Positions 2,989 to 24,347 of a DNA stretch of 32,000 nt are shown piece after piece (positions within the stretch are counted from its first letter, which is position 1; the number at the start of each line of letters is the position of its first letter). The stretch is from Planctomycetales bacterium (GTDB lineage: Bacteria > 4484-113 > JAFGCY01): positions 2,430,001 to 2,462,000 of the forward strand of contig CP060262.1 of NCBI GenBank assembly GCA_022646745.1. The letters are read 5' to 3'. A model generated the notes under the pieces. The model had not been told where the DNA came from. It saw only the letters and a program-made list of their open reading frames with translations, and ran no database searches. The position numbers and the translations under genes are program-made.

Positions 2989-4623
2989 CTAGCTGGCCGG
3001 ACCGATGTTGATGTCCAGCGGCGGGCCGAGGATCGGGTTGACGGCAGGCACGCCGAACTCCTCACCCCACATCAGGATGAAGGTTGAGCTCTGCGGCCAG
3101 CGGATCGCCTCGGTATTGCTGCCCTCCGCGATGGCGCGGAACTTGATGTAGCCCACGTTGCCACTGCCGTCCACCACGGGCGTGCCCTTCTTCTGGGTGT
3201 CGTTGAAGCCGAGCAGTACATACGGGCTGTCCGCCGGGGCGACATTGTCAATTCCGATGAACAGCGGGTCTGACAGCAGGTTCACACCGCTGAACGCGCC
3301 ATCGGTGTATTCAGGCAGGATCTGGTCCGCACTGTCCACCTCGACAACCTCAAGGATGGAGCCGTCGTACTCAAGGCGCATGTTCGCGCTGAACAGGCCG
3401 ATCACGTCAGTGATGCGCACGGCCACCCAGAACTCGTCGCCAACCGTCAGGCTGCCGGTCGCCGGATCCTGGATCACGAGGTCAACCGGGGCGCCCTTCG
3501 GGGACACGCCGACCTTGGCAATGTTGCTGACCGGGCCCTCATGCGGGGTCTGGCCCTGGCCGGCAAGCGGCACCACAGCCCAGGCGTACTCACCACCGGT
3601 GTCCGGCACGGTGTCGTCAACGAATGTATATGTCAGGCGCACGCCGGTGCTGGGCACCTCGCTGCGCGGAGCGCTTGGCAGGCCCGGGTCAGCCTTGTTC
3701 TCGACCTTGCTCCAGCGCGGGTCCTTCACGTCAGCCGTCGGGTCCTCGCTGGCGGATGACAGCGCGGTGCGGTAGACGTCGTAACCGGTGATCTGAGTGT
3801 TGAAGTTCTGGCCGATCGGCGTGATGTCAGCGAGCGTGATCAGGCCGTTGAAGTCACCGTCCACGATCTCCACCTTGGGAGAAGCGTCCGGGTCTTCCTT
3901 GTCATAGCTCTTGCCGAGGTTGATGCCGAGCGGGGTGATGTCCGCGATGGTCACCACGCCATTGATGTCATAGTCGCCGGTCAGGCGCTCGCGCCAGCTC
4001 AGAGTGGCAATCGCCTCACCGTTGTCCTGCGCGATCAGCTGCTGCTGGGCCACGAGGCCGACCTTGTTGTTCGGGGTGTCGATCGCCATGGTGCTGCGCT
4101 CGGGTACGGCCGCTCCGGATGCGATACTGAGCGTTGCCAGCGGACGGTCAGTGGCAAGCAGGGCAGTGTTGCGTCCGCTGATGCCGATTGCCTGGGTGCC
4201 GCCCGGCATGTTGACGCTGATGCCGATTGCGCCTGCGTCACCGAACTCGACACCCGCCGCATGCTCATCGCCTGCATCGCTGCGCAGGTAGAGCAGGGCG
4301 GAGCCCACCGGCCGGCTGCTGCTGACCACGAGCTCGTTGCCATTGCGCTCCAGCTCAATCGATTCAAGTAACCCAGCGTCGGTCCGGTTGAAGCTGTCCA
4401 GCGCCGTCAGGGAGAAGCCGCCGGCCTCGACCCAGGCTGCACTGCGCAGGGCATCATCCAGCGGGATGACCTGCTCCATCGACTGCTGCGGCTGCCAGTT
4501 TTCGTACCCGGCAGCGTTGCCATTGTCCTGCGCTGCCTGCTGCAGCTCCTGGCCGCCTCCGCAGGCGCCAAGCATCATCGCGGCGCAAAGCAGCGCGGCA
4601 AAGTTCAGAGATGAAATGCGCAC
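2989..4623 (-). CDS. surface lipoprotein with a dockerin-like repeat pair and a C-terminal cohesin-like domain
   Basis: I prefer the GTG start at 4623: AAGGAG lies 8 nt upstream, and a predicted -10 at 4689-4694 puts the transcription start downstream of the ORF-track start at 4683. N-terminus: M/VRISSLNFAALLCAAMMLGAC (lipobox LGAC). Two dockerin-like segments: GDYDINGVVTIADITPLG and VDGDFNGLITLADITPIG (nt 3799-3981). The C-terminal ~150 aa (nt 3049-3495) are cohesin-like: LTVGDEFWVAVRITDVIGLFSANMRLEYDGSILEVVEV. Confidence 0.65.
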   Translation of the reverse strand: MRISSLNFAALLCAAMMLGACGGGQELQQAAQDNGNAAGYENWQPQQSMEQVIPLDDALRSAAWVEAGGFSLTALDSFNRTDAGLLESIELERNGNELVVSSSRPVGSALLYLRSDAGDEHAAGVEFGDAGAIGISVNMPGGTQAIGISGRNTALLATDRPLATLSIASGAAVPERSTMAIDTPNNKVGLVAQQQLIAQDNGEAIATLSWRERLTGDYDINGVVTIADITPLGINLGKSYDKEDPDASPKVEIVDGDFNGLITLADITPIGQNFNTQITGYDVYRTALSSASEDPTADVKDPRWSKVENKADPGLPSAPRSEVPSTGVRLTYTFVDDTVPDTGGEYAWAVVPLAGQGQTPHEGPVSNIAKVGVSPKGAPVDLVIQDPATGSLTVGDEFWVAVRITDVIGLFSANMRLEYDGSILEVVEVDSADQILPEYTDGAFSGVNLLSDPLFIGIDNVAPADSPYVLLGFNDTQKKGTPVVDGSGNVGYIKFRAIAEGSNTEAIRWPQSSTFILMWGEEFGVPAVNPILGPPLDINIGPAS

Positions 4624-4688
4624 TAGGAATTCTCCTTCCTGTAATAGCGGGAATCGCGTGGAAACGCTCCCAGCCAAGCCCAATACCG

Positions 4689-4769: not shown

Positions 4770-5567
4770 GTGTCCCAGCCCGGGATCAGCAACCAGCCGG
4801 CCCTGCTTGTGGGCACCCAGCCGCGTGCGGAGGCGGATAGCCTTGTGCGGCTCTATACACCCGGATTCGGTGCGCTGACACTGGTGGCACGCAGCCTGCG
4901 CAAGCCGGGCAGCAAGCTCGCCGGCCAGCTCAAGCCGGCGGATGAGCTGCTGGTCAGCGCTGCTGCCGGACGCGCTGGGGGGCGGATCCTGACCTCCGTC
5001 AGCAGCCAGCGTGACCATCGCATCTGGCAGCAGGACCTGAACCTGCTGGCGCTCTATTGGTTCATGCTGGAGTGCTCCTGGCTGGCCAGTGCGGATGATG
5101 CAAGCAATGCGGACGGCTTTCGCCTGCTGGTGAACCTGCTTCGTTCCGTGGATGAACCCGGGCAGCGCAACAGCCTGGCTGCGGTGTTCTGCATCCGCTT
5201 CCTGGCCCTGCATGGCATGCTGCCCGACCTGCACCACGATGAGGACAGTGATGAGCCGCTGGCCGGGGATGCACTGTGCCGGGCGTCCTTCAACGGCCTT
5301 GTGGATTCTGCCCGTGCTGCAAGCGCTGGGATCCCCCCTTACGGCCTGCTGCGGATCAGTCAGGCGCGGCTGCAGCGCTGGCGCAGGTGGATGTCACGGC
5401 CGCTGCTGGAGTACCCTGGGCAGGAGGCTGATATTGTGGATGTGTCGTTACTGGTCGGCTTCACACGCAACCACGTCGCGGAATCGGCGGGGACTGCGGT
5501 TCGCAGTGCGGAATTCCTGCAGCGCCAGTGGAAGCTGAGCCGCCTGCAGGATTTGGCCGGAAGCTAG
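4770..5567 (+). CDS. recO: DNA repair protein RecO
   Basis: GTG start. The N-terminal OB-fold pattern ALLVGTQPRAEADSLVRLYTPGFGALTLVARSLRKPGSKLAGQLKPADELLV, followed by the helical LLALYWFMLE region, matches RecO as I remember it. I saw no clear Cys4 zinc motif. Confidence 0.55.
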   Translation: MSQPGISNQPALLVGTQPRAEADSLVRLYTPGFGALTLVARSLRKPGSKLAGQLKPADELLVSAAAGRAGGRILTSVSSQRDHRIWQQDLNLLALYWFMLECSWLASADDASNADGFRLLVNLLRSVDEPGQRNSLAAVFCIRFLALHGMLPDLHHDEDSDEPLAGDALCRASFNGLVDSARAASAGIPPYGLLRISQARLQRWRRWMSRPLLEYPGQEADIVDVSLLVGFTRNHVAESAGTAVRSAEFLQRQWKLSRLQDLAGS

Positions 5568-6079
5568 GCCGGGATCTGCTTCTCCAGGAAGCGGATCACC
5601 TTCACCAGCCGTTGGTCCTCAATCAGGTCACGAGCCTTTCCGAGCGCTGCCCGGGCCACTTCAAACTCACCCTTGCGAATACGTACGGCGGCTGCAACCA
5701 TCGCGACTATGCCGGGGAAATCAGCCAGGGTTTCGCGGGGCAGGGAAGTCACTAGCTTCTGGGCGTCATCGCTGCGGTGTTCCGTCAGCAGGCGGATTGC
5801 CTGCAGCAGTTCGTGGGGGATTTCCTGTGCGCCATCACTGGATGCCACACTGTCCTCATCCGCGGCGGTTGCTGCCTGGTTCGGGGCCGTGCTGCCATTC
5901 TGCTGGGCCACATCCACGGACATCACCTCGCGTACGACCTTGGTCAGCTTGCCGAGCTGGGAAACGATGTTTCCGATGCGCTGTGACAGTTCCTCGACCT
6001 GCATCTCCAGGTGCTGGACGCGCACTCGGGTCGCCTTGAGCTCCTCTGCGAGATCACTTTCGGAGGATGAATAATCCAC
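5564..6079 (-). CDS. coiled-coil protein with a C-terminal helical-repeat end (function unknown); third gene of the pseudokinase-TPR operon
   Basis: GTG start 18 nt after the stop of the giant gene, with GAAGGA upstream. Heptad-like N-terminus: DLAEELKATRVRVQHLEMQVEELSQRIGNIVSQLGKLTKVV. A low-complexity linker precedes a TPR-like end: VAAAVRIRKGEFEVARAALGKARDLIEDQ. No signal peptide. Confidence 0.6.
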   Translation of the reverse strand: MDYSSSESDLAEELKATRVRVQHLEMQVEELSQRIGNIVSQLGKLTKVVREVMSVDVAQQNGSTAPNQAATAADEDSVASSDGAQEIPHELLQAIRLLTEHRSDDAQKLVTSLPRETLADFPGIVAMVAAAVRIRKGEFEVARAALGKARDLIEDQRLVKVIRFLEKQIPA

Positions 6080-6097
6080 TAACCAGTCAATCCTTCT

Positions 6098-9000
6098 CTA
6101 GTTCTGTTCGTCATCGTCATCATCACCGAGCATTGAAAGGATCTCATCAAGCTCGTTGATCATGCGCGACTTGTCCTTGGTTCCCTGTGCAGCCGGCGCA
6201 GGGGCCGTCGCATCCGCGGGGCTGGAACCGGTCTGATTGTACAGTGCGTCAAGTCGCTGGCGGCTGTCCCTGTAGTTCTGGCGCAGCACAAGGATCTGCT
6301 CAAGGTTTCGGATGGCCTCTTCGCGGTTGTTGAGGTTCTCCTCGACCTGGGCAAGGCCATAAAGCGTGCGCAGGCGCAGCTCCGGATCAGCGTCATCGAG
6401 CTTGTCATTGCGCAGCAGTTCCGCGAAGGCGCGGCGCGCAATGTTGTAGTCACCTGAAAGGTTGAAGCACTCCGCCAGCACCAGGTAAACCTCGGGTGCC
6501 ACCTGGCCGCGTCCGATGCCGGACTGCAGCTCGTTGATGGCTTCCTCGACGTCCCCGTTCTGCAGGGCCAGCTCCGCAATCCGCAGGGTGCGCTGAGCAT
6601 TGTCAGGTTCACTGCGGGTCTCATCTATCCGCTTGCGGTTGATATCGCGCACCAGCTCAGTGGTCCGCTGGGCAAGGCTCTCACGCTCCGGCAGCAGTTC
6701 ATGCGCCGCCCTGGTGAATTCCAGTGCCTGCTCCAGTTCATTCGCGTCCTGGTGGATCATGCTGAGGCGGGCATTGAGAGCTGCCCTGGCCAGCTTGTCC
6801 TGTGGACCGGCGGCCAGCGCTTCGTTGTACGTGCTGAAAGCCTCATCCTTGCGACCCATCCGCTCAAGCAGCATGCCATAGCGGTACTTGAGGTCCCCGC
6901 TCTTCTCCGCCACCAGCCAGTCAAAGGGCTGCGGGTCCGCGGTGGCATAGGCCCACACAAGGTGGTCCGCCGCGAGATCCATCCGCCCATTGGCGCGATA
7001 CCATTCGATCAGCCAGGTGCGGGCCCGTGCCTGCTGCGGCGTTGTCAACAGCATCTCCGCCAGGTTGACGGCGAGTCCACTCCGCTCCCCGATGGAAGCA
7101 ATGTCGACCGCTTCCAGGGCTGCTGCGGCTTCCTCAAAGTCGCCACGCAGGGTGAGGATCTCGACCCGGGCCAGTTGCTGGCCAATGGCATACCGGTCCC
7201 CCGCCAGGTCGGCAACGACTGACAGTGCCGTCGGCGCAGGGGCTTCATCGCCCTCAACATAGAGCATCGAGAGCTGCCAGGCGCGGGCCTGGTCGCCCAG
7301 CTTGCCGAACAGTTGCAGCAGCAGTTCGATCAGTTCGGGGCTGTCGGGGGATTCATGCACCAGGTCCAGCACGATGCTGATCAATGAACGAACATGCTGC
7401 TTGGGCAGGTTGCCCTGCAGGGCATTGAGCAGCTCGTTGACGAACATTGTGCGGCCTTCGGCACTGGCAAGGTCGATCAGCTTGAGGCGGGCCACGATCA
7501 CCGGCAGGCTGTCGCCGGACTTCTGCTGGTACTCGCCGAGGATGCTGACGGCCTGTTCGCGGCCTTCAGCACCGGTCTGGGCCAGCAGTCCAGCAAACTC
7601 AACCACACGGTCCTCATCGTCCTCGACCATCGCGCTTTCGAGCTGGAACATGCGGATCTTGAAGAGCAGGTCCTCATCCTCCGGCAGGTCCGCAAGGTCC
7701 AGTTCACGCAGGGCGCCGATCAGCTCCTCATTCATGCCACCCGCCAGCTTGCGGGCCTCATTGAAGTAGTTGATCGCGTCGCCACGGTTGCCGACCTTGT
7801 TGGCCAGCCTGTAGAGGTGCAGCAGCAGCTGCGGGAGGTCATCCTCCTCGATCTCGACATTCGGGTAGTTGCGATAGAGGTCCTTGGCAAGCTCGTAGAG
7901 CTCCTCGGCACTCCAGCGAGGCACGAGCCAGTTCAGTGCACTGACGGCCCAGCCCCAGTCGCTGACCCGCTCGCTGTGTGCCACGGCCTTCAGAGCCAGC
8001 AGGTGCAGCGGGTACTTCATCGGATTTGGCACCAGTGCATGGTGATGCCGAAGCTGCGTGAGGATCGGCTCCGCCAGGCTCGGATCCTTGTCCAATGCGG
8101 CGGCATATTCCTCAGCACTGCGCTGCCAGAGGTGCACGCGCAGGTAGGCCTCGCCGAGCTGCATGCTTGCACCCGGGCCTTCGGCCTTTTCCTTTATCTC
8201 TTCAAGCAGCTGGATATATTCGGGATACTCGCCGACGGCATCACGCAGGCCGGCCAGCCGGTCCAGTGCTTCATCAATTCGTCCGGCGTTGAACAGCGCG
8301 CGGCCCCAGCTGACCTCAATTGCACTCGGCAGGTCGGTGTCAACGAGCGCGAGCTGGTCGAACAGCTCCAAAAGCTCCGGGCTGCCCTCATCGCCATTGG
8401 CATTGATCTCGCGCACAAGTGCGGTGGCGCGCTCCTGGTCGCCGGAGATGGCGGCCAGCGCCAGGTTGAAGCGCATGCAGTCCGACTGGTCGCTGCAGTC
8501 CGCCAGCTGTTCAGCGGCGTACATCCGCAGCGGGCGCAGGGCCTCGTTGGCATGGATCTCCTTCTGCTGGAACTGCTGGCGCAGTTTCATCAGGCGGATG
8601 GTGGCCTGCTTCAGGTCACGGCCCGGCGGCACCAGCAGCGTGCGCACGAGGGTGATCATCGCCTCCGGCGAACCCTCGTTGACACTGACCAGGCGTGTTG
8701 CCAGTTCGCGGGCCTCAAGCGGTGCATTGCGGTCCAGCAGGTGGCCGGCGATGGTGATGCCCTCGTCCAGCTTGCCGTTCTCCACGGCCAGGTCGCCGAG
8801 CCGCACCAGCCCGTCCACATCCTCCGGCACGAGGTTCAGCTCAGATATCTGCTTCAGTGCCCATTCAGGGTTCTCGTTCTTGTTTCCGGCGGCTGTCAGG
8901 ATGGCAATCGCCTTGTCCGGGCTTTCCGCGCTGTAGGCGTTGGCAAGCACCTCAGCGATCTCAATCACCGTGGTGGACTGCTCAGGTGCCTTGATCATGA

Positions 9001-11914
9001 GGAAGAAGGTCTCCTCAAGTTCAGAAAGCGCCTTTTCGTCACGGCCACGGGCCAGTGCCAGCAGGTCGCGGGCCACATTCTCGAGGTCGCCCATGTCACG
9101 GTTGGTCTGCAGGCGGTAGCGCAGCGCCGGTTCAAATTCCTCGCGGCAGAGGTCCATCAGGGATTCGTCCAGCAGGCTCTTCAGCGGCGGGTTGGAATCA
9201 AGGCCCAGCCCGCCGGACTCGAAGCGCTCGCTCATGGACTTGATCAGCCCGAGGCACGCATCACTGTCGCCACGGCTGCCAAATGCACCCAGCAGCTTCT
9301 CAGTTGCCGGCAGCAGTGCCTCGTCCGGCAGCTCGCTGCAGATCTGCTCGATCGTCATCGAGTCGTTGACAATGAACTCATCCGGCGAGTCGAACAGGCT
9401 GATCGCCTCCTGCCACTTGCCGGCATGCACCAGCGAGCGGTAGCGCACGGTGAAGCGCACCCCGGCGGGCAGCTTCTCGCCGTACTCGTTGATCAGGTCC
9501 ATCGTCGCCTCAGGGGCGATCAGGGATGCGGCATGCTGCAGCACCTGCTCGAACTGCTGGTGGTTGCCGATGCGCTGGGTCAGGTTCAGGTAGATGCGGG
9601 TCCAGCGCATCCGGTTGCGCGCCGGGTCATCCTCTCCGAGGTCGTCCAGCAGCGGGCGCAGGTCATCCAGCCAGCGGATCGGTTCGCGGCTGATTTCCTC
9701 ATCAAGGTAGTTGTCAAGTGCGTCGATTTCATCGAGTGCGATCGGCAGCAGCTCGGTATGGCCCTTCTCGATGGTCAGGTAGCTGGCCTGCCTGGCGCGC
9801 TGCATGTGCACGTCGCGCGGGTTGATTGACTCGACCCAGATGCTGTAGCCCTGCTGGATGTTGCCATTGTTGAGATCCAGCAGGCTGGCCGCGGTGGCTG
9901 CCTCAAAGCCGGCCAGCGGGTCATCCGAGGACAGGCGCTGGGCATTGGCAAGGGAGAACAGCATCTCAGGCGGGATCTCATCCTGGGAATTGATCCACTG
10001 TTCGATGGACTTCAGCAGGTTGCGTCGTTCCTCACTGCCTTCAGGCAGGGATGTGGCGCGGGCCAGAGCTGCCTGGTAGTCACCCGTCTTCAGGGACAGG
10101 CGGGCGATGTGCGCCGCGATCTCCGGATGTGAGTCAAAGTCCGTGAACATGCGCTCGATGCGCTGGCGCAGGCGGTTGGCATGGTCCTCGTCAGGTACCC
10201 TGATCGAGCGCAGCTCGATCGCGCAGGCGGTGCCGTCGTCCTTCAGGTACATCTGTTCTGCGAACCACAGGTGCGACTCCTCAACCAGCCACGGGGCAAG
10301 CCCGGAGGTCGCGATCGTGCGGCTGATCGCATGCAGTTCGTTGACACTCTGGTTGTCGGGATTTACCTGCTTGTCCAGTACCGCACTCACCTGGTTCGGC
10401 CGCTCACAGTCGGCCAGGCTCTCGATCAGGTGGTCGATGTCGAAGTCGGCGGAGACGACTGCTGCGACATGCTGCAGGTCTTCCGCCACTCCATCCTGTG
10501 GTTCCTCCGTATCGTCACCGGATTCAGGTTCATCCACCTCAGTTCCGGCATCCAGACCTGAGGAATCCTCTCCCAGTTCCTCGCCGGAATCGGCATGGTC
10601 CCCATAGTCATCCAGTACATCTTCTTCGTTTCCAGATTCACCGGACTCGATGGACTCATCGTCATCGTAGGATCCGGCTTCCTCCGGGGAATCGTCAAAT
10701 TCCTCAACTTCCGGCCCAGGCTGGCCGGCGGTATCAATAATGCCCTCCTGGTCCAGTTCGAGGCGGGCAGCCTCCACCGTGCCGCTGCCGTTGACGGAAG
10801 CATCCGGGGTCGGGCGGCTGTCCGGGATCACGTGGTCAGGCAGTTCGGGGAAGTCGATGTTGGTGACCTTGCCGGCTGCGATCTGCAGGAATTCATTCGC
10901 TGCACTGGGCGGCTGCTGCTTGGCCTGCTGGAATGCGCGGAACCAGTTGCCGATCTTGTCCTTGATCAGTTCGCTGTCCAGCTTGACGATGCGCTTGAGC
11001 GTATAGACGGCCAGCTTCTCGTCACGCACCATCTCCTTGTGGTTCGTCAGGTAATTGGCAATCTCCACCGGGTGCTGGTGGGAGCGCTCCAGGCGCTCGC
11101 TGAACACGTTCCAGCCGATGCGCCCGTTGCGGTACTCCTTGACGGAGTTGTCCATCACGATCTTGTGCAGTTCCCAGCAGCACTGCGGGCGGTGGTCGAG
11201 CAGCGAATTGGCCAGCTGGAAGAAGTCATCCCCCACGCTGCGGCCTTCCGCGATGATCTCAACCAGCATGTCTTCAGCCAGGCGGTCATTCTTGCGCAGG
11301 ATCTGCGCCTCGGCCATCATCAGGGTGACCTCGACGGCCTTGTCCCCGAGGCTCTGGCGGTTATCTATCAGGGTTTCAAGTGAACGCACCGCAAGGTCAT
11401 CGCCCTGCTTGACGGTGCCCTTGCTGATCATCTGGCTCAGGCCCCAGGCGAAGTCCTTCCAGTGTGAGACCTCATTGGTGAGGCTGGCGCGCTCGCTCAG
11501 GTATGAAAGGTGGCGCTCCGGACGCATGTTGCCGGTCGTGATGCGCCAGTTGAGCAGCGCCAGGCGGTTGTCACGTGAATCACTCTCCAGTTCGAGCATG
11601 CGGTCCACAAGCCCGGCCAGGCCCGGCACCACCGGAACCTTGCGGCTGCGGGCCACCATGTCGCTGAAGGTGTCAAAGGCCACACGGGTGTCATCCAGCA
11701 CGGCGGCCGCTTCCACCAGGTTCTCGGCACCGCTCTTGAGCTGGCCGGGATTGGCGGCATTGGGGTTGATCACTTCCTCGAGGTAGCGGCGGGCATAATC
11801 CTCCAGGTTCTTGAGCAGTGCCGGGCGGCGCTTCTGCTGCTGCTGGGGATTGAGCCGCTTGTAGGCTTCCACCTGCCGGTTTAGGGATTTGCCGAAATCA
11901 AACCTTTTTAACAT
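6098..11914 (-). CDS. giant (1938 aa) acidic tetratricopeptide-repeat-like protein, cytoplasmic, function unknown
   Basis: A single uninterrupted ORF whose ATG lies 20 nt after the upstream stop. TPR-like units include GEAYLRVHLWQRSAEEYAAALDKDPSLAE, MGRKDEAFSTYNEALAAGPQD and LAECFNLSGDYNIARRAFAELLRND. A D/E/G/S-rich linker is encoded at about nt 10490-10745. The C-terminal tail is DDDDDEQN. No signal peptide or TM segment. Confidence 0.8.
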   Translation of the reverse strand: MLKRFDFGKSLNRQVEAYKRLNPQQQQKRRPALLKNLEDYARRYLEEVINPNAANPGQLKSGAENLVEAAAVLDDTRVAFDTFSDMVARSRKVPVVPGLAGLVDRMLELESDSRDNRLALLNWRITTGNMRPERHLSYLSERASLTNEVSHWKDFAWGLSQMISKGTVKQGDDLAVRSLETLIDNRQSLGDKAVEVTLMMAEAQILRKNDRLAEDMLVEIIAEGRSVGDDFFQLANSLLDHRPQCCWELHKIVMDNSVKEYRNGRIGWNVFSERLERSHQHPVEIANYLTNHKEMVRDEKLAVYTLKRIVKLDSELIKDKIGNWFRAFQQAKQQPPSAANEFLQIAAGKVTNIDFPELPDHVIPDSRPTPDASVNGSGTVEAARLELDQEGIIDTAGQPGPEVEEFDDSPEEAGSYDDDESIESGESGNEEDVLDDYGDHADSGEELGEDSSGLDAGTEVDEPESGDDTEEPQDGVAEDLQHVAAVVSADFDIDHLIESLADCERPNQVSAVLDKQVNPDNQSVNELHAISRTIATSGLAPWLVEESHLWFAEQMYLKDDGTACAIELRSIRVPDEDHANRLRQRIERMFTDFDSHPEIAAHIARLSLKTGDYQAALARATSLPEGSEERRNLLKSIEQWINSQDEIPPEMLFSLANAQRLSSDDPLAGFEAATAASLLDLNNGNIQQGYSIWVESINPRDVHMQRARQASYLTIEKGHTELLPIALDEIDALDNYLDEEISREPIRWLDDLRPLLDDLGEDDPARNRMRWTRIYLNLTQRIGNHQQFEQVLQHAASLIAPEATMDLINEYGEKLPAGVRFTVRYRSLVHAGKWQEAISLFDSPDEFIVNDSMTIEQICSELPDEALLPATEKLLGAFGSRGDSDACLGLIKSMSERFESGGLGLDSNPPLKSLLDESLMDLCREEFEPALRYRLQTNRDMGDLENVARDLLALARGRDEKALSELEETFFLMIKAPEQSTTVIEIAEVLANAYSAESPDKAIAILTAAGNKNENPEWALKQISELNLVPEDVDGLVRLGDLAVENGKLDEGITIAGHLLDRNAPLEARELATRLVSVNEGSPEAMITLVRTLLVPPGRDLKQATIRLMKLRQQFQQKEIHANEALRPLRMYAAEQLADCSDQSDCMRFNLALAAISGDQERATALVREINANGDEGSPELLELFDQLALVDTDLPSAIEVSWGRALFNAGRIDEALDRLAGLRDAVGEYPEYIQLLEEIKEKAEGPGASMQLGEAYLRVHLWQRSAEEYAAALDKDPSLAEPILTQLRHHHALVPNPMKYPLHLLALKAVAHSERVSDWGWAVSALNWLVPRWSAEELYELAKDLYRNYPNVEIEEDDLPQLLLHLYRLANKVGNRGDAINYFNEARKLAGGMNEELIGALRELDLADLPEDEDLLFKIRMFQLESAMVEDDEDRVVEFAGLLAQTGAEGREQAVSILGEYQQKSGDSLPVIVARLKLIDLASAEGRTMFVNELLNALQGNLPKQHVRSLISIVLDLVHESPDSPELIELLLQLFGKLGDQARAWQLSMLYVEGDEAPAPTALSVVADLAGDRYAIGQQLARVEILTLRGDFEEAAAALEAVDIASIGERSGLAVNLAEMLLTTPQQARARTWLIEWYRANGRMDLAADHLVWAYATADPQPFDWLVAEKSGDLKYRYGMLLERMGRKDEAFSTYNEALAAGPQDKLARAALNARLSMIHQDANELEQALEFTRAAHELLPERESLAQRTTELVRDINRKRIDETRSEPDNAQRTLRIAELALQNGDVEEAINELQSGIGRGQVAPEVYLVLAECFNLSGDYNIARRAFAELLRNDKLDDADPELRLRTLYGLAQVEENLNNREEAIRNLEQILVLRQNYRDSRQRLDALYNQTGSSPADATAPAPAAQGTKDKSRMINELDEILSMLGDDDDDEQN

Positions 11915-11934
11915 TTACGCCTATCCTGCCCAAC

Positions 11935-12660
11935 TCAGCTGATTGCCTGCAGGTCCGCTGTCACGGAACTGAGGAACTGTCGGCGAAGCATTCCATGAAG
12001 CTCATCCATGCCGTTTCGCCTGCTTTCCGCCCAGGCGATGCCGTACTCGACGATCTTGTCCTTCAGCTCCTCCGCATTGGCACCACGGCCAAGTAATTCA
12101 CTGAGCAGGTTGAGGGTCTGCTCACGGTCTGCAAGCAGTTCATCCTCCTCGGTCGAACGGACTGCATGTCCGAAGCTGGCCAAGCGCACCCAGCAGGTAC
12201 TGGGTGAGACCCAGAGGTTCTCGGTGTTGATCCGCCCGTGCACGACGGGTTCATCCTGGCCCTGCATGTAATCAACGATTTCAAGGATGCTGAGCGCCAG
12301 CCGGATCCTGTCCGCGCCGGACATTGCATCAGCGTCCATGTCCGCAAGTGGCTGCTCAGCCAGCCAGGGGAAGCCGATGAAGGGCACCTCGAAGTCGCGC
12401 TTGTCGATCTTCAGGGATAAGACATGGGGATGCGCAAGGCTGCGCAGTATGTCCGCCTCGACAGCCAGCCGCCTGAGCGACTCCTCGCTGCCGTCGGAAA
12501 ACTTGACCCACATCCGCATGCCCGAGGACTGTTCACGGGCAAGGAAAACCGGCTCTGTACTGAGCGCGAGGGCCAATTTCTGTTCGAGCAGGAAATACTG
12601 CTGGATGCCTTCCGGCACGCCCCACAGTTCGCTAAGCCTAGCTCCGTGCATGATGGACAA
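11935..12660 (-). CDS. Hanks-type protein-kinase-like protein with degenerate catalytic motifs (predicted pseudokinase)
   Basis: The ORF-track start is TTG 12660; an alternative ATG lies at 12651. Kinase landmarks are recognisable but mutated. The G-loop reads LALALSTEPV. The VAIK-like MWVKF keeps the Lys. The alpha-C helix plus HPHVL is present. HRDLKPEN is replaced by HGRINTEN, losing the Asp. DFG is replaced by SFG, losing the Asp. No APE motif, and the C-lobe is short. Confidence 0.6.
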   Translation of the reverse strand: MSIMHGARLSELWGVPEGIQQYFLLEQKLALALSTEPVFLAREQSSGMRMWVKFSDGSEESLRRLAVEADILRSLAHPHVLSLKIDKRDFEVPFIGFPWLAEQPLADMDADAMSGADRIRLALSILEIVDYMQGQDEPVVHGRINTENLWVSPSTCWVRLASFGHAVRSTEEDELLADREQTLNLLSELLGRGANAEELKDKIVEYGIAWAESRRNGMDELHGMLRRQFLSSVTADLQAIS

Positions 12661-12798
12661 CTTACCCCTGGATTTGGTACTGGAGTTCAGGAAAACCCGC
12701 CTATAACTGTAATCCTGAATCCCGTCTGCTTACTTAAATCCCACTTAACGACAATCTTAACTCGAACCCTCTGGACAGCATCCTCCATTTGACTCAGA

Positions 12799-12874
12799 TT
12801 TGACCCCCGGAATCTGGACTTTCCCTTAGCCTGGAAAGTTGCAGTCTTCCGGTGAAACCGGGCCAGCGGTCAAA
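12799..12874 (-). promoter_or_regulatory. structured 5' leader element upstream of the pseudokinase operon
   Basis: The minus-strand RNA has nested perfect complementary arms: UUUGACC/GGUCAAA, CCGGAA/UUCCGG and CUUUCC/GGAAAG, with apical loop AGGCUAAG. A competing small hairpin (CCGG-UUUCA-CCGG) re-uses one arm. Confidence 0.35.
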
Positions 12875-12894
12875 TGTTGATTTAAGGTGCCTAT

Positions 12895-12924
12895 ATATTA
12901 CCTTATAAGAATTCAAATATTCAA
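12895..12924 (-). promoter_or_regulatory. putative sigma-70-type promoter of the pseudokinase-TPR operon
   Basis: Minus strand reads TTGAAT-N18-TAATAT in the AT-rich part of the 353-nt intergenic region. This would give a leader of about 230 nt. Confidence 0.35.
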
Positions 12925-12962
12925 TCAGCTTATCTCTGGCTGTCCTATTGCTGCCTTTAAGC

Positions 12963-12989
12963 AAAAAGGGCGGCCCCTGAGGGCCGCCC
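12963..12989 (-). terminator. rho-independent terminator after flgE
   Basis: Minus strand: GGGCGGCCC-tcag-GGGCCGCCC, a perfect 9-bp GC stem, followed by TTTTT. It begins about 25 nt after the flgE stop. Confidence 0.8.
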
Positions 12990-13013
12990 CGGAATCGTCA
13001 GTTACTGCTCAGA

Positions 13014-15359
13014 TTACCGCTTCAGGTTCACGATCTCGTTGAGGATCTCATCCTGGGTGGTGAACACCCGGCTGTTGGCCTGCAGTCCGCGCTGGGTGAT
13101 GATCATGTTGGTGAATTCCTGGGCCAGGTCCACATTGGACTGCTCGAGGAATCCGTTGAACACCACGCCGCTGCCGCCGCTGCCCGGACGCAGCTGCACC
13201 GGGCTGCCCGAGTTGGTCGTCGGAATGAATGCCGTGTCACCGGCGCGCTCGAGGCCCTCCGGGTTGCTGAAGGTTGCCAGGCTGAGCTGGGCGATCGGGC
13301 GGCGCTGACCATTGTCGTAGAAGGCGATCAGCGTACCGGTCTGGTCCGCCTCGAAGTCGGTCAGCACGCCCATCGGGTAGCCGTCCTGCTCTCGCGCGGC
13401 GGTCGTGCTGGTGGAGGCGAACTGGGTGATGCCGTTGATCGCCTTGCCATTGCCATCGAAGGTCAGGTCAACGCTGGTCGGCTGTGCGCCGGGGGCGGTG
13501 AAGCTGAAGGCGTCGATCGGGTTGCCGCTGGTGATCAGGCCGCTCTCTCCGAAGCTGATGCGGCCGGTGGTGTTCAGCAGCTCGATGTTCGGCTCCTCCG
13601 GCATCGAGATCTCGTAGTCCCACTCGTTCTCATTGACATGGGTGAAGGTCGTCACCATGTTGTGCGGGTTGCCCAGCGAGTCATAGACGATGCGGCTGGT
13701 GCTGTGCATGAATGCGTCCTCGGTGCCGAAGGTGGCGACGCCGGGCATCAGCTCGTCGATGCTGATGTTCACACCGGGCATCAGCGGCATGTCCGGGCTG
13801 CTGCCCTCGATGCTGTTCTGCACATTGGCCAGCGAGCTGGCGGTGTAGAATGTCGGCGACCAGGCTGCCGGAGCCGTGCTGCGGTCGTAGCCCCAGTCCT
13901 CGAAGTAGCGCACCAGCTCCGGGCCTCCGTTGTCAGGGGTGAACACCAGTTCGGCACGGGCATTCTCGCCGTTGTCAATGATGCCCGCATCAGCGCCGAG
14001 CGCGCCGATGCCCCAGTCGGTGAAGGTGTTGAAACCGTAGCGGGCGGCCAGTCCGGGCGTCGCCGTGCCATCGATGAAGATATCGGCCTCGGCGGCATCC
14101 ACCGGTGCACCGGCCGGCTGGCGCTGCTCACCGGCATAGTTCTGGATGAGGCTGATTGTGCCGTTCGGGTTGGCAATCGCAGTCACCTGGATGTTGGCGG
14201 TGTTGTTGATCGCATTGGCGACGAGGATCGCGTTCTGCTCGGCGGTGTCGGTCAGGCCGGCACTGGAGGTCAGCGTGACCGTCACTCCGTTGACGACGAA
14301 GCTGTCACCGGCCAGCGGGCGGTTCACACCGACACCCATCGGCACGGAGGTGGTCTCGGTGGCCGCCTTGGCGTCCGTCACGGTTACGGTGTTGGTGCCC
14401 ACGAGGAAGCTGCCGGGCTCCTCCGGTGCCTCATACAGGTTGACAAGCATTCCGCTGGAGGCCGGGTCGCTCACGGCAGTGATGTCGATGCTCGTGCCGC
14501 CGTTGCGGCTCTGCAGTACGACCTGGAATTCTCCGTTGACCTCGCGCACGGTGGCCTGCACCTGCAGGCTGGCCACGGGGTCGATGTTGATTGCATCAGC
14601 CACCATGTTCGCGGCTTCCTCGAAGTCCGCTGCGGCGCTGGTGTCATAGGTCACGGTGTTGCCGTTGATGTCTATCGTTTCCGGCCCGGCACTGAGTGCG
14701 GTGACCGTGTCACCGACGGCGATCGCCCAGGGCTCGGCGGCTCCGGCGACCGTCAGGATGCCGGTTGAGCCGAAGCTGGCGGTTTCGTTGTCAGCGCTGC
14801 CGTAGCGGAAGCTCGAGCTGTCCAGGTTGCTGGCGTAGTTGAGCATCGTGGTGGCCCGTGCACTGAGCTTCTGGCCGAAGTTGATCACGATGTCACTGAT
14901 CTTCGAGCCGGGGTCGATCTTCGAACCGTCCTCGTTGAGTTGGGTATAGCCCTGGATGCGCCAGCCGTTGTTGGCGACGAGGCGGCCGTCGCGGTCGACG
15001 TTGAAGTCGCCGGCGCGGGTGTACATCTGTGAGCTGCCGTCGGACAGGGTGAAGAAACCGCTGCCGTTGATTGCGAAGTCCGTCGGACGCGCGGTGTTCT
15101 CCAGCGCGCTCTGCTGCATCAGGTTGTGGATGGCTGCGATCTGCATGCCGAGGCCGACCTGCTTGGGGTTGATGCCGCCGAAGTTGGAGGTCGGTGCGCT
15201 GGCACCGCGCAGGGTCTGGCTCAGCACGTCCGAGAAGATCACGTTGGAGCCCTTGAAGCCCGTGGTGTTGACGTTGGCGATGTTGTTGGCAATTGCGTCG
15301 ATGCGCAACTGGTGGTTACGGAGACCGCTTGCCGCGGTGAAGAAGGCACTACCTGCCAT
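13014..15359 (-). CDS. flgE: flagellar hook protein FlgE (enlarged, 781 aa)
   Basis: N-terminus: FFTAASGLRNHQLRIDAIANNIANVNTTGFK. C-terminus: GFLEQSNVDLAQEFTNMIITQRGLQANSRVFTTQDEILNEIVNL. These are the canonical flagellar rod/hook terminal domains. GGAGGA lies 9 nt upstream of the ATG. Confidence 0.93.
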   Translation of the reverse strand: MAGSAFFTAASGLRNHQLRIDAIANNIANVNTTGFKGSNVIFSDVLSQTLRGASAPTSNFGGINPKQVGLGMQIAAIHNLMQQSALENTARPTDFAINGSGFFTLSDGSSQMYTRAGDFNVDRDGRLVANNGWRIQGYTQLNEDGSKIDPGSKISDIVINFGQKLSARATTMLNYASNLDSSSFRYGSADNETASFGSTGILTVAGAAEPWAIAVGDTVTALSAGPETIDINGNTVTYDTSAAADFEEAANMVADAINIDPVASLQVQATVREVNGEFQVVLQSRNGGTSIDITAVSDPASSGMLVNLYEAPEEPGSFLVGTNTVTVTDAKAATETTSVPMGVGVNRPLAGDSFVVNGVTVTLTSSAGLTDTAEQNAILVANAINNTANIQVTAIANPNGTISLIQNYAGEQRQPAGAPVDAAEADIFIDGTATPGLAARYGFNTFTDWGIGALGADAGIIDNGENARAELVFTPDNGGPELVRYFEDWGYDRSTAPAAWSPTFYTASSLANVQNSIEGSSPDMPLMPGVNISIDELMPGVATFGTEDAFMHSTSRIVYDSLGNPHNMVTTFTHVNENEWDYEISMPEEPNIELLNTTGRISFGESGLITSGNPIDAFSFTAPGAQPTSVDLTFDGNGKAINGITQFASTSTTAAREQDGYPMGVLTDFEADQTGTLIAFYDNGQRRPIAQLSLATFSNPEGLERAGDTAFIPTTNSGSPVQLRPGSGGSGVVFNGFLEQSNVDLAQEFTNMIITQRGLQANSRVFTTQDEILNEIVNLKR

Positions 15360-15368
15360 TTGACGATT

Positions 15369-15395
15369 CCTCCATGATATGTGAGTGCATGGAGG
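15369..15395 (-). promoter_or_regulatory. hairpin sequestering the flgE Shine-Dalgarno sequence
   Basis: mRNA: CCUCCAUG-cacucacauau-CAUGGAGG. This is a perfect 8-bp stem whose 3' arm contains the flgE SD (GGAGG). It lies in an unusually long (131 nt) GC-rich spacer that holds two further hairpins, at 15401-15421 and 15433-15448. Confidence 0.45.
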
Positions 15396-15490
15396 AGCGG
15401 CCCGCCGCGGACGGCGGCGGGTCCATGAGCTTCCATCCCGGGGGATGGTCCGGCTCTCCGCTCCTTGTGGTGGCCCCTGCCGGGGTCTTC

Positions 15491-15889
15491 CTACCGCGTT
15501 CCCTGCAGGAACACGGCGCTGTCAACATTCGTGATCACGCCCTCGCGCATGGCGCCACGGTCCATTGCCGTGATCACCGTGCGTGACGGTATGTTGACAA
15601 CCAGTGCATATTCATCCGCCATCAGCAGGCTGTCCCGTGAGCCCTTGGAGGCTGCCCGCCTGACGGCGTCCTCGATCTCACTCATCTCCCGGTTGCCCAG
15701 TTCGATCCCGCGGCTGCTGATCCGCTTCAGCGCATGCGCGCTGAACTTCACACCACCCTCGCTCCTGAGCGATTCGTCCAGGGACTGCCGGAAGGACACA
15801 TCCGGAAGTTCCTGCCTGCGGGCTGCAGGCCCTGCCTGCTGCCCTGTTGCCACCGGGCGGATCTGGCCCGGCAATAGTCCCTCAACCAT
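15491..15889 (-). CDS. small flagellar operon protein (TIGR02530-like), located between flgD and flgE
   Basis: VKFSAHALKRISSRGIELGNREMSEIEDAVRRAASKGSRDSLLMADEYALVVNIPSRTVITAMD matches my memory of the family found between flgD and flgE in Firmicutes and Spirochaetes. The position fits that family. GAGGAG lies upstream of the ATG. Confidence 0.6.
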   Translation of the reverse strand: MVEGLLPGQIRPVATGQQAGPAARRQELPDVSFRQSLDESLRSEGGVKFSAHALKRISSRGIELGNREMSEIEDAVRRAASKGSRDSLLMADEYALVVNIPSRTVITAMDRGAMREGVITNVDSAVFLQGTR

Positions 15890-15915
15890 CCTGCTCTCCT
15901 CTGCAATCCATCCAC

Positions 15916-16365
15916 TTACTCCGCTTCACGCACCGAGATCACCTGTCCCGGCAGCAGCAGCTTGTCTCCCACAAGCAGCATCGGCACTCCCTGGAGCACT
16001 TCCACGCTGTCCGCGTGGCCCTCAATCAGATCACCGTTGGCATCCACGCCCTCGATTGTCTTGCCCAGCAGCGCAGTGGCCTCACCCAGCCCGCCGCTGG
16101 TGGACTGGTCCTCGATCAGGCCCTTGATGTCCAGCAGGGCCTGCAGGCTGTTCATCGTCGCCAGCTGCTGGGTGAATTGCGCACCATCCGCCGGGTTGAG
16201 CGGGTCCTGGTGGCGCAGCTGCTCCATCATCAGGCGCATGAAGTCCTGGCCGCTGTCGGTGGTCTCCGGACTGGCGATCACCGGGTTCTCCGGGTCCGGC
16301 AGGTTGACAACCCGCTGGTTGACCCCGTTTGACATGTTTGACGGAAGCGTCTTGAGAATCTCCAT
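15916..16365 (-). CDS. flgD: flagellar hook assembly/capping protein FlgD
   Basis: DFMRLMMEQLRHQDPLNPADGAQFTQQLATMNSLQAL is the FlgD N-terminal signature. I place the start at ATG 16365 (GGGAG lies 6 nt upstream) rather than the ORF-track 16431, which would overlap fliK. Confidence 0.85.
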   Translation of the reverse strand: MEILKTLPSNMSNGVNQRVVNLPDPENPVIASPETTDSGQDFMRLMMEQLRHQDPLNPADGAQFTQQLATMNSLQALLDIKGLIEDQSTSGGLGEATALLGKTIEGVDANGDLIEGHADSVEVLQGVPMLLVGDKLLLPGQVISVREAE

Positions 16366-16381
16366 CACATCTCCCTTGTTG

Positions 16382-18532: not shown

Positions 18533-18576
18533 CAGTGCACCTCCTTACAGTGCGGTCTCTTGCGCGTCATTTGGCG

Positions 18577-19419
18577 CTAGTCGTCAAGGGTGAAGTCCGA
18601 GATCACGGGGATCACGGAGTTGTCACTTCCATCAATATCGGCCCGGTACTGCGGGAATTGAGCGAGGAAGGCCGCATGTTCCTCCGGGCTGAGCATGAAG
18701 TCCGGCAGAGTTGCCATGCCGCTGTCCGCCGTCGGCTGGACGGAGGGATCAATGCCGGGCTCGGCCGGGTCAGGCGTTGCCAGTGATTCATTCACCTGGT
18801 CCAGGATGCTTTCACCGGGGGGCAGCAGGGCCTGCGCATCATCCATCTGCAAGAGGATGTTGATCCAGTTGGCGGCATCTTCGGGTTTTGCAAATTCGAG
18901 GATGTGGGCCAGTTCCCGCTTCTTCTGGCATGAGAGCACCAGCGTTGCATCATTGTCATTGAGCGCGCTGATCCGCTCCGCAGCCAGCATCGGGTCCATC
19001 CTGCCGAGCGCCTTGCAGATCAGCTGGCGGGTGCGCCCGTCGATGCGGGTTGCGCCTTCCGGATCGACAACTGCGGCAACATCCATTGCAGATTCATCTG
19101 CGGCAGCTGCCTCATCAGGTGATGCCGGGTCAGCGCTTTCATCCACGCCCAGTTCGACCGGCTTGGCCAGCAGCAGAGGGGATTCATTCTTAGCGGCCTT
19201 CTTCGCCGGCTTGCCCGCAGGAAGCATAGCGCTGAGTTCGATGTCGCCAGCCTGGATTCCTGCCAGCAGGGACACCAGCGCGAAGATGGCCAGAGCCAGC
19301 ATCAGGCTGAGCCTGGTGAAGCCGCGACGCCTGAAGCGCTTCCCCAGAAAAGCAGGATCCCGCTGGGACGGAAAAATTCCGGCCAGGCGGGATCTTGAGT
19401 TCGTAAGTTTGCTAGTCAC
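18577..19419 (-). CDS. MotE/YlxF/FlbB-like flagellar protein (single TM segment plus MgtE_N-like helical domain)
   Basis: A basic N-terminus precedes a TM segment (LSLMLALAIFALVSLLAGI). The region LGRMDPMLAAERISALNDNDATLVLSCQKKRELAHILEFAKPEDAANWI resembles the MgtE_N-like repeat of YlxF/MotE proteins, which precede fliK in fla operons. The GTG start sits right at the predicted sigma-28 transcription start. Confidence 0.5.
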   Translation of the reverse strand: MTSKLTNSRSRLAGIFPSQRDPAFLGKRFRRRGFTRLSLMLALAIFALVSLLAGIQAGDIELSAMLPAGKPAKKAAKNESPLLLAKPVELGVDESADPASPDEAAAADESAMDVAAVVDPEGATRIDGRTRQLICKALGRMDPMLAAERISALNDNDATLVLSCQKKRELAHILEFAKPEDAANWINILLQMDDAQALLPPGESILDQVNESLATPDPAEPGIDPSVQPTADSGMATLPDFMLSPEEHAAFLAQFPQYRADIDGSDNSVIPVISDFTLDD

Positions 19420-23055: not shown

Positions 23056-23085
23056 ATGGCGGGAACTCTCCCGCCATTTTTTTTT
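23056..23085 (+). terminator. rho-independent terminator, probably bidirectional
   Basis: ATGGCGGGA-actc-TCCCGCCAT is a perfect 9-bp stem running into a tract of 9 T. It sits between the convergent genes ending at 23031 (+) and 23084 (-). The minus-strand side is followed by a T-rich stretch (tcttctcttgtt). Confidence 0.8.
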
Positions 23086-24325: not shown

Positions 24326-24347
24326 CCTGTCAATCCTACAGGTTGGC

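Follow-up and report, generated by a model that had tools for sequence, protein, structure and literature searches.

Directly downstream of the flagellar hook gene flgE lie three uncharacterised genes, in a 32,000-nt stretch of contig CP060262.1 from a Planctomycetales bacterium (the window). What do these genes encode, and does their position indicate a function in the flagellum? The preliminary description had proposed, from this position, a flagellum- or pole-associated scaffold with a pseudokinase as adaptor or switch. The reading somewhat favoured here is that the trio is a self-contained, lineage-specific cytoplasmic multi-protein scaffold and not an enzyme, and that its adjacency to flgE reflects inherited gene order.

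The three ORFs are all on the minus strand, and include g1 (11935..12651), a very large gene termed the giant (6098..11914), and g3 (5564..6079). The spacing described earlier was reproduced from the ORF coordinates, 20 nt (11915-11934) separating g1 from the giant and 18 nt (6080-6097) the giant from g3. The ORF call of g1 extends to 12660 with a TTG; however, the start was placed at the ATG at 12651, as shown by the orthologues and by 10 database proteins of 238 aa, and g1 therefore encodes 238 aa and not 241. The giant has 1,938 aa (217 kDa, pI 4.6, net charge -150), whereas g3 has 171 aa and its stop codon shares a 4-nt overlap with the convergent recO. In four relatives (L002, L008, L009 and L017) the giant stop overlaps or abuts the g3 start, and the order g1-giant-g3 is unbroken at every examined locus with visible flanks. 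With the common strand, the short or overlapping junctions and the order kept across relatives, the trio is best read as one autonomous, vertically inherited, putative operon. The three proteins are acidic (pI 4.86 for g1, 4.59 for the giant and 5.16 for g3). No TM segment was predicted in any of them (maximal Kyte-Doolittle 19-residue means of 1.07-1.31, the giant having 1.07), and no hydrophobic N-terminus was found by the hydropathy check. On this hydropathy basis, the earlier statement that signal peptides and TM segments are absent from the trio holds.

Homologues are few. In a database of 5.8 billion proteins, 19 belong to the family of the giant and 15 to that of g1. When the N-terminal profile of the giant was run exhaustively with HMMER over 1.84 billion representatives, 21 matches were returned, all at E<=7e-23 and none borderline; the scan recovered only the family itself and no relatives outside the lineage. 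The profile of the conserved core, used in a word-indexed search, gave zero matches and missed even the known family members, so that this search is uninformative. As far as these searches reach, the giant family is sharply bounded and confined to one uncultivated bacterial lineage. Pfam, NCBIfam and PADLOC gave only generic TPR or kinase matches for the trio, which is thus a real conserved unit of no characterised family, as had been suggested, and a well-defined orphan operon. Because the family is conserved in one candidate lineage and absent elsewhere in the searches, it marks lineage-specific cell biology in never-cultured organisms.

The g1 protein was compared with protein kinases. The Pfam Pkinase model (PF00069) matched it with E=2.7e-5 and 24.2 bits, under the gathering cut-off of 31.7 bits. 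A profile of six g1 orthologues matched 697 PDB sequences at E<=1 (best E=9e-8), and all of the 60 that were listed are protein kinases. The profile matches and the sub-cut-off Pfam score together indicate that kinship to the kinase fold holds, and that Pfam does not count g1 among its curated members. The HRDLKxxN motif is HGRINTEN in the window g1. Across the six orthologues, the HRD column reads R/S/Q/E/D/R, the catalytic-loop Asn column N/H/N/F/P/A, the DFG Asp column S/G/G/G/G/G (aspartate in none of the six), and the VAIK Lys column K/V/K/L/K/K; none of the four residues that are conserved in active kinases is conserved here. The kinase matches stop at residue ~170-189, and about 65 aa are left after the DFG position. 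The predicted fold includes the N-lobe and the catalytic-loop region, and a complete C-lobe (activation segment, APE, helices F-I) is apparently missing. Judged from its sequence, g1 is a truncated pseudokinase, which agrees with the kinase fold with replaced catalytic residues described before.

The giant is composed of a 350-aa N-terminal solenoid, an acidic disordered tether, a solenoid of ~1,400 aa, and a tethered C-terminal helix (coordinates of its parts are likewise on the minus strand). The AF2 model of the C-terminal 1,200 aa contains ~66 helices and no strands (pLDDT 83.6), and both models of the giant show a helical solenoid. Only one stretch, aa 1675-1881 (6272..6892), is recognised as TPR by Pfam; the scores were 48.7 bits for TPR_2 (gathering cut-off 27), 45.7 for TPR_19 (cut-off 25), and 44.7 for TPR_14 (cut-off 23.5). 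The giant thus combines Pfam TPR matches above the gathering score with helical-hairpin models, as expected of the TPR clan. The most conserved region is a canonical TPR core of 150 aa (aa 1196-1346, 7877..8329), in which the column identity is 70-82 % compared with ~45 % overall; this core matches consensus TPR designs with E=6e-6. No internal sequence repeats were detected by self-BLAST, and the hairpins are ancient and diverged. At the C-terminal end, a variable P/A-rich linker precedes a conserved amphipathic helix (aa 1919-1930, 6125..6160; consensus I-L-D-E-I-L-S-L-L-G), which corresponds to residues 1177-1190 of the C-terminal model and has flanks with pLDDT <50. The poly-Asp tail noticed before (DDDDDEQN, 6101..6124) is real; however, it is found in the window clade only.

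Foldseek returned only long TPR/HEAT scaffolds for the giant, for example IFT139, Ski3, Ctr9 and OGT. For the C-terminal 1,200 aa, the top of the list was held by IFT139/TTC21B, Ski3/TTC37 and Ctr9 (E 1e-13 to 1e-9). Like the giant, they are continuous helical-hairpin solenoids of >1,000 aa, and they are complex subunits in the matched PDB entries; whereas the TM of ~0.1 and the identity of 10-13 % leave the repeat type alone in common. These proteins are eukaryotic, have other partners, and are without the N-terminal domain and the conserved core of the giant.

The N-terminus of the giant had been described as a non-repeat region, which was not borne out. The AF2 model of aa 1-350 (10865..11914) is a family-specific helical-hairpin solenoid of 19 helices (pLDDT 89.5), and no PDB sequence match to this region was found; Foldseek gave only generic TPR matches (TM 0.2-0.38). 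On these results, a non-repeat domain or a known fold or family was rejected. The best Foldseek matches, at E ~1e-3, were complexes of LGN/Pins, whose matched PDB entries represent a TPR domain bound to partners such as Inscuteable and NuMA. However, LGN/Pins is eukaryotic, and with a TM of 0.2 and 10-14 % identity the likeness is a design analogy only. The loop S-R-K-V-P-V-V-P-G-L (aa 90-99, 11618..11647) is located between helices 77-89 and 99-108 of the model. Nine of its ten positions are invariant, the exception being V96, which is Ile in one giant (P0019), and the loop is a candidate docking site. The acidic linker described before was confirmed as a disordered tether rich in D/E/G/S (aa ~375-480, 10475..10792). 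The pLDDT is <50 from aa 362, the net charge of aa 401-500 is -40, and the conservation collapses across the linker, the sequence of which is not conserved. The invariant N-terminal loop, the acidic disordered tether, the 150-aa TPR core and the C-terminal helix are the four strongly constrained elements of the giant. No embedded catalytic domain was found in the giant by Pfam, NCBIfam or PADLOC, and the models contain helices only. The term scaffold is used because of the fold class and this absence of catalytic domains, and the giant as a cytoplasmic acidic TPR scaffold is supported.

The region between flgE and g1 was examined as the possible regulatory region of the trio. The non-coding stretch is 353 nt long (362 nt when counted from the g1 ATG, 12652..13013, minus strand). 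Its GC content is 47 % compared with 62 % for the window, which confirms the low-GC upstream region described earlier. The terminator closing flgE, which had been placed at 12963-12989, was found at 12967-12990 with a 10-bp stem (9 GC pairs) and a T-run. The leader has 74-75 % identity to those of L004 and L005, compared with 58 % at the third codon positions of g1, and within it an AT-rich box (12871-12926), a candidate promoter, is conserved. A sigma-70 consensus promoter was not called in a scan of the window. A structured RNA or riboswitch in the leader was rejected, as no Rfam family matched the ~350 nt at E<=1 and the RNA fold z-score was -0.95; a conserved small ORF was also not found there. 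The trio would be transcribed from this leader of its own.

The neighbourhoods were compared at the trio loci only, which represent 13 lineages. The giant and g1 occur together at every examined locus. The gene immediately upstream of g1 is flgE in about eight lineages (the window clade, L001, L002, L009/L012, L010, L011, L014 and the P0010 locus), and flgE is not adjacent in five (L007 with P0019, L018 with P0005, P0014, P0015/L008 and P0006/L017). Homologous trios are therefore neither mainly without flagellar genes nor never near them. In two of the five (L007 and L018) the backbone purM-CarboxypepD_reg-[ ]-trio-recO is kept, whereas the five-gene flagellar block (ylxF-like/fliK/flgD/flg-new/flgE) is cleanly absent; in the other three (P0014, P0015/L008 and P0006/L017) the trio is intact and the surroundings are unrelated. 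The lineages without an adjacent block are scattered over the tree of giants. The backbone from purM to recO is conserved, and the block was probably either inserted into it or lost from it. Moreover, purM, recO and a cohesin-domain gene are neighbours of the trio as conserved as flgE, and the adjacency is therefore as expected from inherited gene order, which is its simplest explanation. The giants are only ~40 % identical among lineages, yet the adjacency persists in about 8 of the 13, which is compatible with a functional link. A backbone that rearranges slowly, with the block coming and going, accounts here for the conserved flagellar adjacency, which should not be taken as evidence of shared function.

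A cytoplasmic scaffold associated with the flagellum or the pole, for example at the C-ring, at the export gate or as a polar landmark, with g1 as adaptor or switch, is considered rather unlikely. This reading would account for flgE immediately upstream of g1 in the ~8 lineages, and might fit the CheA gene located 8 kb downstream of the trio in L003. The C-terminal helix ILDEILSLLG might also resemble the peptides through which CheZ and FliM bind CheY; a 25-position profile of it gave no PDB match, and is too short for this result to be telling, so that the likeness is a lead only. Large acidic scaffolds such as HubP and FimV serve as polar landmarks, and they share with the giant a strongly acidic composition and long acidic stretches that are disordered. 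However, HubP/FimV carry a LysM domain in the periplasm and are anchored by a TM segment, whereas the giant has no LysM match in Pfam, no TM segment, and is mostly an ordered solenoid. The known systems PflA/PflB, FlcA and HubP/FimV are periplasmic or membrane-anchored. The Campylobacter PflA/PflB and the Borrelia FlcA are TPR-rich like the giant and are linked to the flagellum; they are much smaller, and they are periplasmic (a location also given in the title of PDB 9hmf). The giant, by contrast, shows no Sec signal or TM segment by hydropathy and no homology to flagellar families in Pfam or NCBIfam, and the Campylobacter periplasmic scaffold came up only as a generic structural match, at rank 48 of the Foldseek results (E=1.4e-6). 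Between flgE and g1 stand the terminator and a separate leader, and no sigma-28 or sigma-54 consensus was matched in the window, although the promoter types of the lineage may differ. Together with the five lineages that keep the trio away from flagellar genes and the equally conserved purM and recO, these data do not support a flagellar role as claimed from position; the flagellar reading is weakened and not refuted, and the trio may still have a role in motility or polarity. A bolder version is very doubtful, namely that the trio is a new type of cytoplasmic mega-scaffold at the flagellar base or cell pole, in which the C-terminal helix would dock a receiver-domain protein, g1 would be a nucleotide-gated switch, and g3 a multimeriser. 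If true, it would be a bacterial analogue of the eukaryotic signalling platforms of TPR scaffold and pseudokinase, coupled to motility.

The kinase kinship of g1 raises two further readings. The trio might be a Ser/Thr-phosphorylation hub, with g1 as partner or decoy of an active Hanks-type kinase encoded elsewhere and the giant presenting substrates, that is, a split and degenerate PknG-like design; this appears quite unlikely. PknG is a single polypeptide, catalytically active, with a short C-terminal TPR domain; whereas the trio has separate genes, a truncated kinase fold without catalytic residues, and a TPR partner of 1,938 aa. Common to both would be a cytoplasmic kinase-fold unit that works with a TPR scaffold. 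Among the matches listed, the g1 profile was best on bacterial STKs including StkP, PknG and PknI; PknG was matched at E ~2e-5, and the likeness is confined to the generic kinase core. The Ser of the invariant S-R-K-V-P loop might be a phospho-site. However, the conserved neighbours include neither an active kinase nor a phosphatase or FHA gene, there is no co-occurrence support, and g1 is without most of the C-lobe that is used in substrate binding and kinase dimerisation. Coupling of kinase and TPR is an established design, and the role of the TPR scaffold in the PknG-type arrangement is described in PMC8546545. That the trio serves in anti-phage defence, or is a mobile accessory system of another kind, with a kinase-like sensor and a TPR sensor, is hardly credible. 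The best PADLOC/NCBIfam matches of g1 were the defence kinases PD-T4-6 (E=1e-7) and MAD6 (E=7e-7 and 1e-5); however, they span the generic kinase core only, and MAD6 scored 24.3 bits against a cut-off of 460 bits. Effector domains, whether nuclease, protease, NTPase or other, are absent from the trio, and no methylase or nuclease genes are neighbours. Mobility genes are not conserved neighbours either, a lone transposase/integrase pair (HTH_Tnp_1, rve) being located ~3 kb downstream in L018 only, and the locus keeps its synteny within a backbone of housekeeping genes and has been inherited vertically. A defence-system annotation of the trio was therefore rejected, as the PADLOC/NCBIfam matches are sub-threshold and generic to kinases or TPR.

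In the favoured reading of a lineage-specific cytoplasmic scaffold, the giant would be a two-armed platform, with the groove of the TPR core and the N-terminal loop binding partners. The pseudokinase g1 would bind the giant stoichiometrically, as an adaptor or as a conformational switch, and may still bind nucleotide. A complex of the trio, if it forms, would show a stand-alone pseudokinase dedicated to a TPR platform of >200 kDa; this would be rare in bacteria, the design being otherwise tied to eukaryotic signalling and transport scaffolds. The g3 protein would dimerise or trimerise through its coiled coil, and thereby cross-link or oligomerise the assembly. Behind this N-terminal coiled coil, g3 has a linker of low complexity and then a C-terminal part that is conserved and helical. 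The coiled coil described before was recovered at aa ~6-53 (nt 5921-6064) by matches to GCN4-type coiled coils; whereas the proposed helical-repeat end was not confirmed, since hhalign against the TPR core of the giant gave a probability of 0.6 % and a TPR at the C-terminal end is not supported. The g3 of L007 has only 67 aa, and the C-terminal part may therefore be dispensable.

The trio consists of three consecutive ORFs on the minus strand, namely the pseudokinase gene g1 (ORF 11935-12660 from a TTG), the giant TPR gene (6098-11914; ATG, 1,938 aa) and the coiled-coil gene g3 (5564-6079; GTG, 171 aa). The g1 start was moved to ATG 12651, which is supported by the orthologues and by 10 database proteins of exactly 238 aa. 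The intergenic gaps are 20 nt between g1 and the giant gene (11915-11934) and 18 nt between the giant gene and g3 (6080-6097), and both downstream starts have an AGGA-type ribosome-binding sequence ahead. A non-coding leader of 362 nt (12652-13013, minus strand) precedes g1; its GC content is 47 % versus 62 % window-wide. A strong intrinsic terminator lies at 12967-12990, 3' of flgE. The ORFs, the terminator and the low-GC regulatory region of the preliminary description were thus all recovered, save for a 9-nt shift of the g1 start. Terminator calling also found a strong terminator between flgE and g1 in the related locus L002, and none in L001 or L004.

The leader is 74-75 % identical to those of L004 and L005, whereas the identity at the third codon (synonymous) positions of g1 is 58 %. 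It includes an AT-rich box (12871-12926, GATTGAATATTTGAATTCTTATAAGGTAATATATAGGCACCTTAAATCAACATTTG). A consensus scan of the leader region gave no sigma-28 or sigma-54 match; no Rfam family matched the leader, its RNA fold was not significant, and no small ORF accounting for its conservation was found. In the distant loci L001, L002, L009, L007 and L018, g1 likewise has about 300-460 nt of non-coding sequence ahead of it, and in the locus of the giant-family protein P0015 it has 192 nt.

The giant has a pI of 4.59 and a net charge of -150, and no TM-like segment was found in it. Its Pfam TPR matches are confined to aa 1675-1881. AlphaFold2 models from the family alignment showed 19 helices in hairpins at aa 1-372 (pLDDT 89.5), and about 66 helices and zero strands at aa 739-1938 (pLDDT 83.6). 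Foldseek matched only repeat scaffolds: the N-terminal part hit LGN/Pins and OGT, and the C-terminal part hit IFT139, Ski3 and Ctr9. The TM-scores were 0.1-0.38, and therefore only the repeat class is in common with them. Self-BLAST detected no internal repeats in the sequence. By the models and the repeat-only matches, the N-terminal region is another solenoid, and the giant hides no catalytic domain. The acidic nature, the lack of a TM segment and the TPR-type hairpins had been described correctly; the "non-repeat" N-terminal region had not.

Sequence conservation is highly uneven along the giant. A TPR core of 150 aa (aa 1196-1346), which matches consensus TPR designs, has a column identity of 70-82 %; elsewhere the giants compared are about 40 % identical. 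An N-terminal constrained stretch (aa 56-146) holds the surface loop S-R-K-V-P-V-V-P-G-L, with nine of its ten positions invariant. The acidic linker noted earlier corresponds to an unconserved tether at aa ~375-480, and the stretch aa 401-500 has a net charge of -40. About 10 residues from the end is a conserved amphipathic helix (I-L-D-E-I-L-S-L-L-G) after a variable Pro/Ala linker; the poly-Asp tail is present as described but limited to the window's own clade.

The single g1 sequence scored 24.2 bits against Pfam Pkinase, under the 31.7-bit threshold. A six-orthologue profile matched hundreds of solved Ser/Thr kinases (e.g. StkP, E=9e-8), and the similarity spans the N-lobe and the catalytic loop. 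The HRDLKxxN positions read HGRINTEN in the window; the catalytic-Asp column is R/S/Q/E/D/R across the orthologues, none has Asp in the DFG-Asp column, the VAIK Lys is not conserved, and the protein ends just about 65 residues after the DFG position. Judged from these alignments, g1 is a truncated pseudokinase, in line with the kinase fold with replaced catalytic residues proposed before. Among the L001-L009 orthologues of g1, those outside the window clade terminate exactly in x-D-L-COOH (TADL, TVDL, MTDL, TQDL, AADL); the window-clade g1, whose C-terminus is encoded at 11935-11970 in the window, carries four extra residues, QAIS. Speculatively, the conserved C-terminal peptide might be a ligand of a TPR groove. 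The g3 coiled coil is also supported, as aa 6-53 match GCN4-type coiled coils only; the C-terminal part is conserved. In L007, the most divergent locus, g3 has just 67 aa (16009-16212), the coiled-coil part alone; either the conserved C-terminal helical part may not be needed, or the L007 copy may have decayed.

The best-supported interpretation is that the trio is an autonomous, lineage-specific operon for a cytoplasmic scaffold complex. While the folds, the conservation pattern, the operon structure and the distribution are shown directly, we infer that the three products would bind each other: the giant might be a two-armed TPR platform, with the conserved core groove and the N-terminal loop as likely binding sites, the pseudokinase might be an adaptor or switch, and the g3 coiled coil might be the oligomeriser. 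Taken singly, a TPR solenoid, a pseudokinase and a coiled coil are familiar kinds of part. What is new is their combination, the size and the family, which is confined to a single uncultured lineage. In a database of 5.8 billion proteins, 19 relatives of the giant were found, all of 1,300-2,070 aa, with "tetratricopeptide repeat protein" as the fullest annotation. Exhaustive HMMER with the N-terminal profile against 1.84 billion cluster representatives gave 21 proteins, all with E<=7e-23 and none borderline, and therefore the family is sharply bounded. The 15 relatives of g1 have about 230-238 aa, barring one 129-aa fragment. The trio is an orphan operon with clear family limits and conspicuous peaks of conservation, and its sole functional hint is the flagellar adjacency.

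Gene context was compared across 18 related loci. In every locus with a visible flank, g1 is ahead of the giant gene; g3 follows the giant gene, and the stop and start codons often overlap. In the window, the upstream genes are flgE (13014-15359), the Flagellar_put gene (15491-15889), flgD, fliK (16382-18532) and an unannotated 280-aa gene (18577-19419), and recO (4770-5567, plus strand) is convergent with g3 downstream, with a 4-nt overlap. A flagellar or polar function, which had been proposed from this position, is doubtful. In its favour, flgE is kept directly upstream of g1 in most lineages (the window clade L004-L006, L001, L002, L009/L012, L010, L011, L014 and the P0010 locus), and the tethered C-terminal helix of the giant may be similar to the peptides with which CheZ and FliM bind CheY. 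The comparative data weaken the adjacency hint. L007 (P0019) and L018 (P0005), the latter the sister of the window clade, have the order aminotransferase-purM-CarboxypepD_reg-g1-giant-g3-recO, which is the window backbone minus the five-gene flagellar block (window 13014-19419); in an otherwise collinear backbone, the block behaves as a clean insertion/deletion between the CarboxypepD_reg gene and g1 (L007 8874-9275; L018 3788-4247). The trio is also intact in unrelated surroundings in P0014 and P0015/L008 (PQQ_2/Wzy) and in L017 (EPSP-synthase). Loci without an adjacent flgE are interspersed among flgE-linked lineages in the neighbour-joining tree of giants, and therefore several independent changes occurred while the trio was never broken. 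The positions of purM, recO and a cohesin-domain gene are as conserved as that of flgE. The housekeeping proteins of the compared loci share 52-74 % identity with those of the window, a divergence at which unrelated genes could plausibly have kept their order. Inheritance of the gene order, with gain or loss of the flagellar block, is the simplest explanation for the place beside flgE.

The giant also differs from PflA/PflB/FlcA, which are defined by a periplasmic location, and from HubP/FimV, defined by LysM and a TM anchor; it has none of these. PknG, a kinase-plus-TPR module, and the very long eukaryotic TPR scaffolds Ski3, Ctr9 and IFT139 are alike in design; however, the trio and the giant, respectively, are not members. 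A hub for phospho-signalling that works with an active kinase encoded elsewhere seems a little less probable than a flagellar role, and a defence system is highly improbable, since the matches are far under the family cut-offs, no effector domain is present, and the locus is syntenic among housekeeping genes.

Some neighbouring genes also showed particular features. FlgE is long (781 aa in the window, 793-968 aa in relatives), and about 400 residues separate its Pfam matches D1 (aa 96-147) and D2 (aa 544-661), so the hook protein probably carries a large extra domain there. The 280-aa protein has no Pfam match in the window; its L001 counterpart has a weak MgtE_N match, which brings to mind the YlxF/FlbB-type proteins encoded in the flagellar operons of Bacillus and spirochetes. 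L003 (the P0016 MAG) has cheA, with the domains Hpt, P2, H-kinase_dim, HATPase_c and CheW, at 15853-17141, about 8 kb away on the downstream side of the trio; no cheA was seen in the other loci compared. The cohesin-domain protein (C-terminal domain; 520-564 aa) is encoded just beyond recO in the window (2989-4683) and in L001, L002, L004-L006, L009, L011 and L018. An AlkZ-like DNA glycosylase gene (23084-24415) lies between the MacB/FtsX permease and aminotransferase genes, and a 119-aa ORF alone occupies its backbone position in L007.
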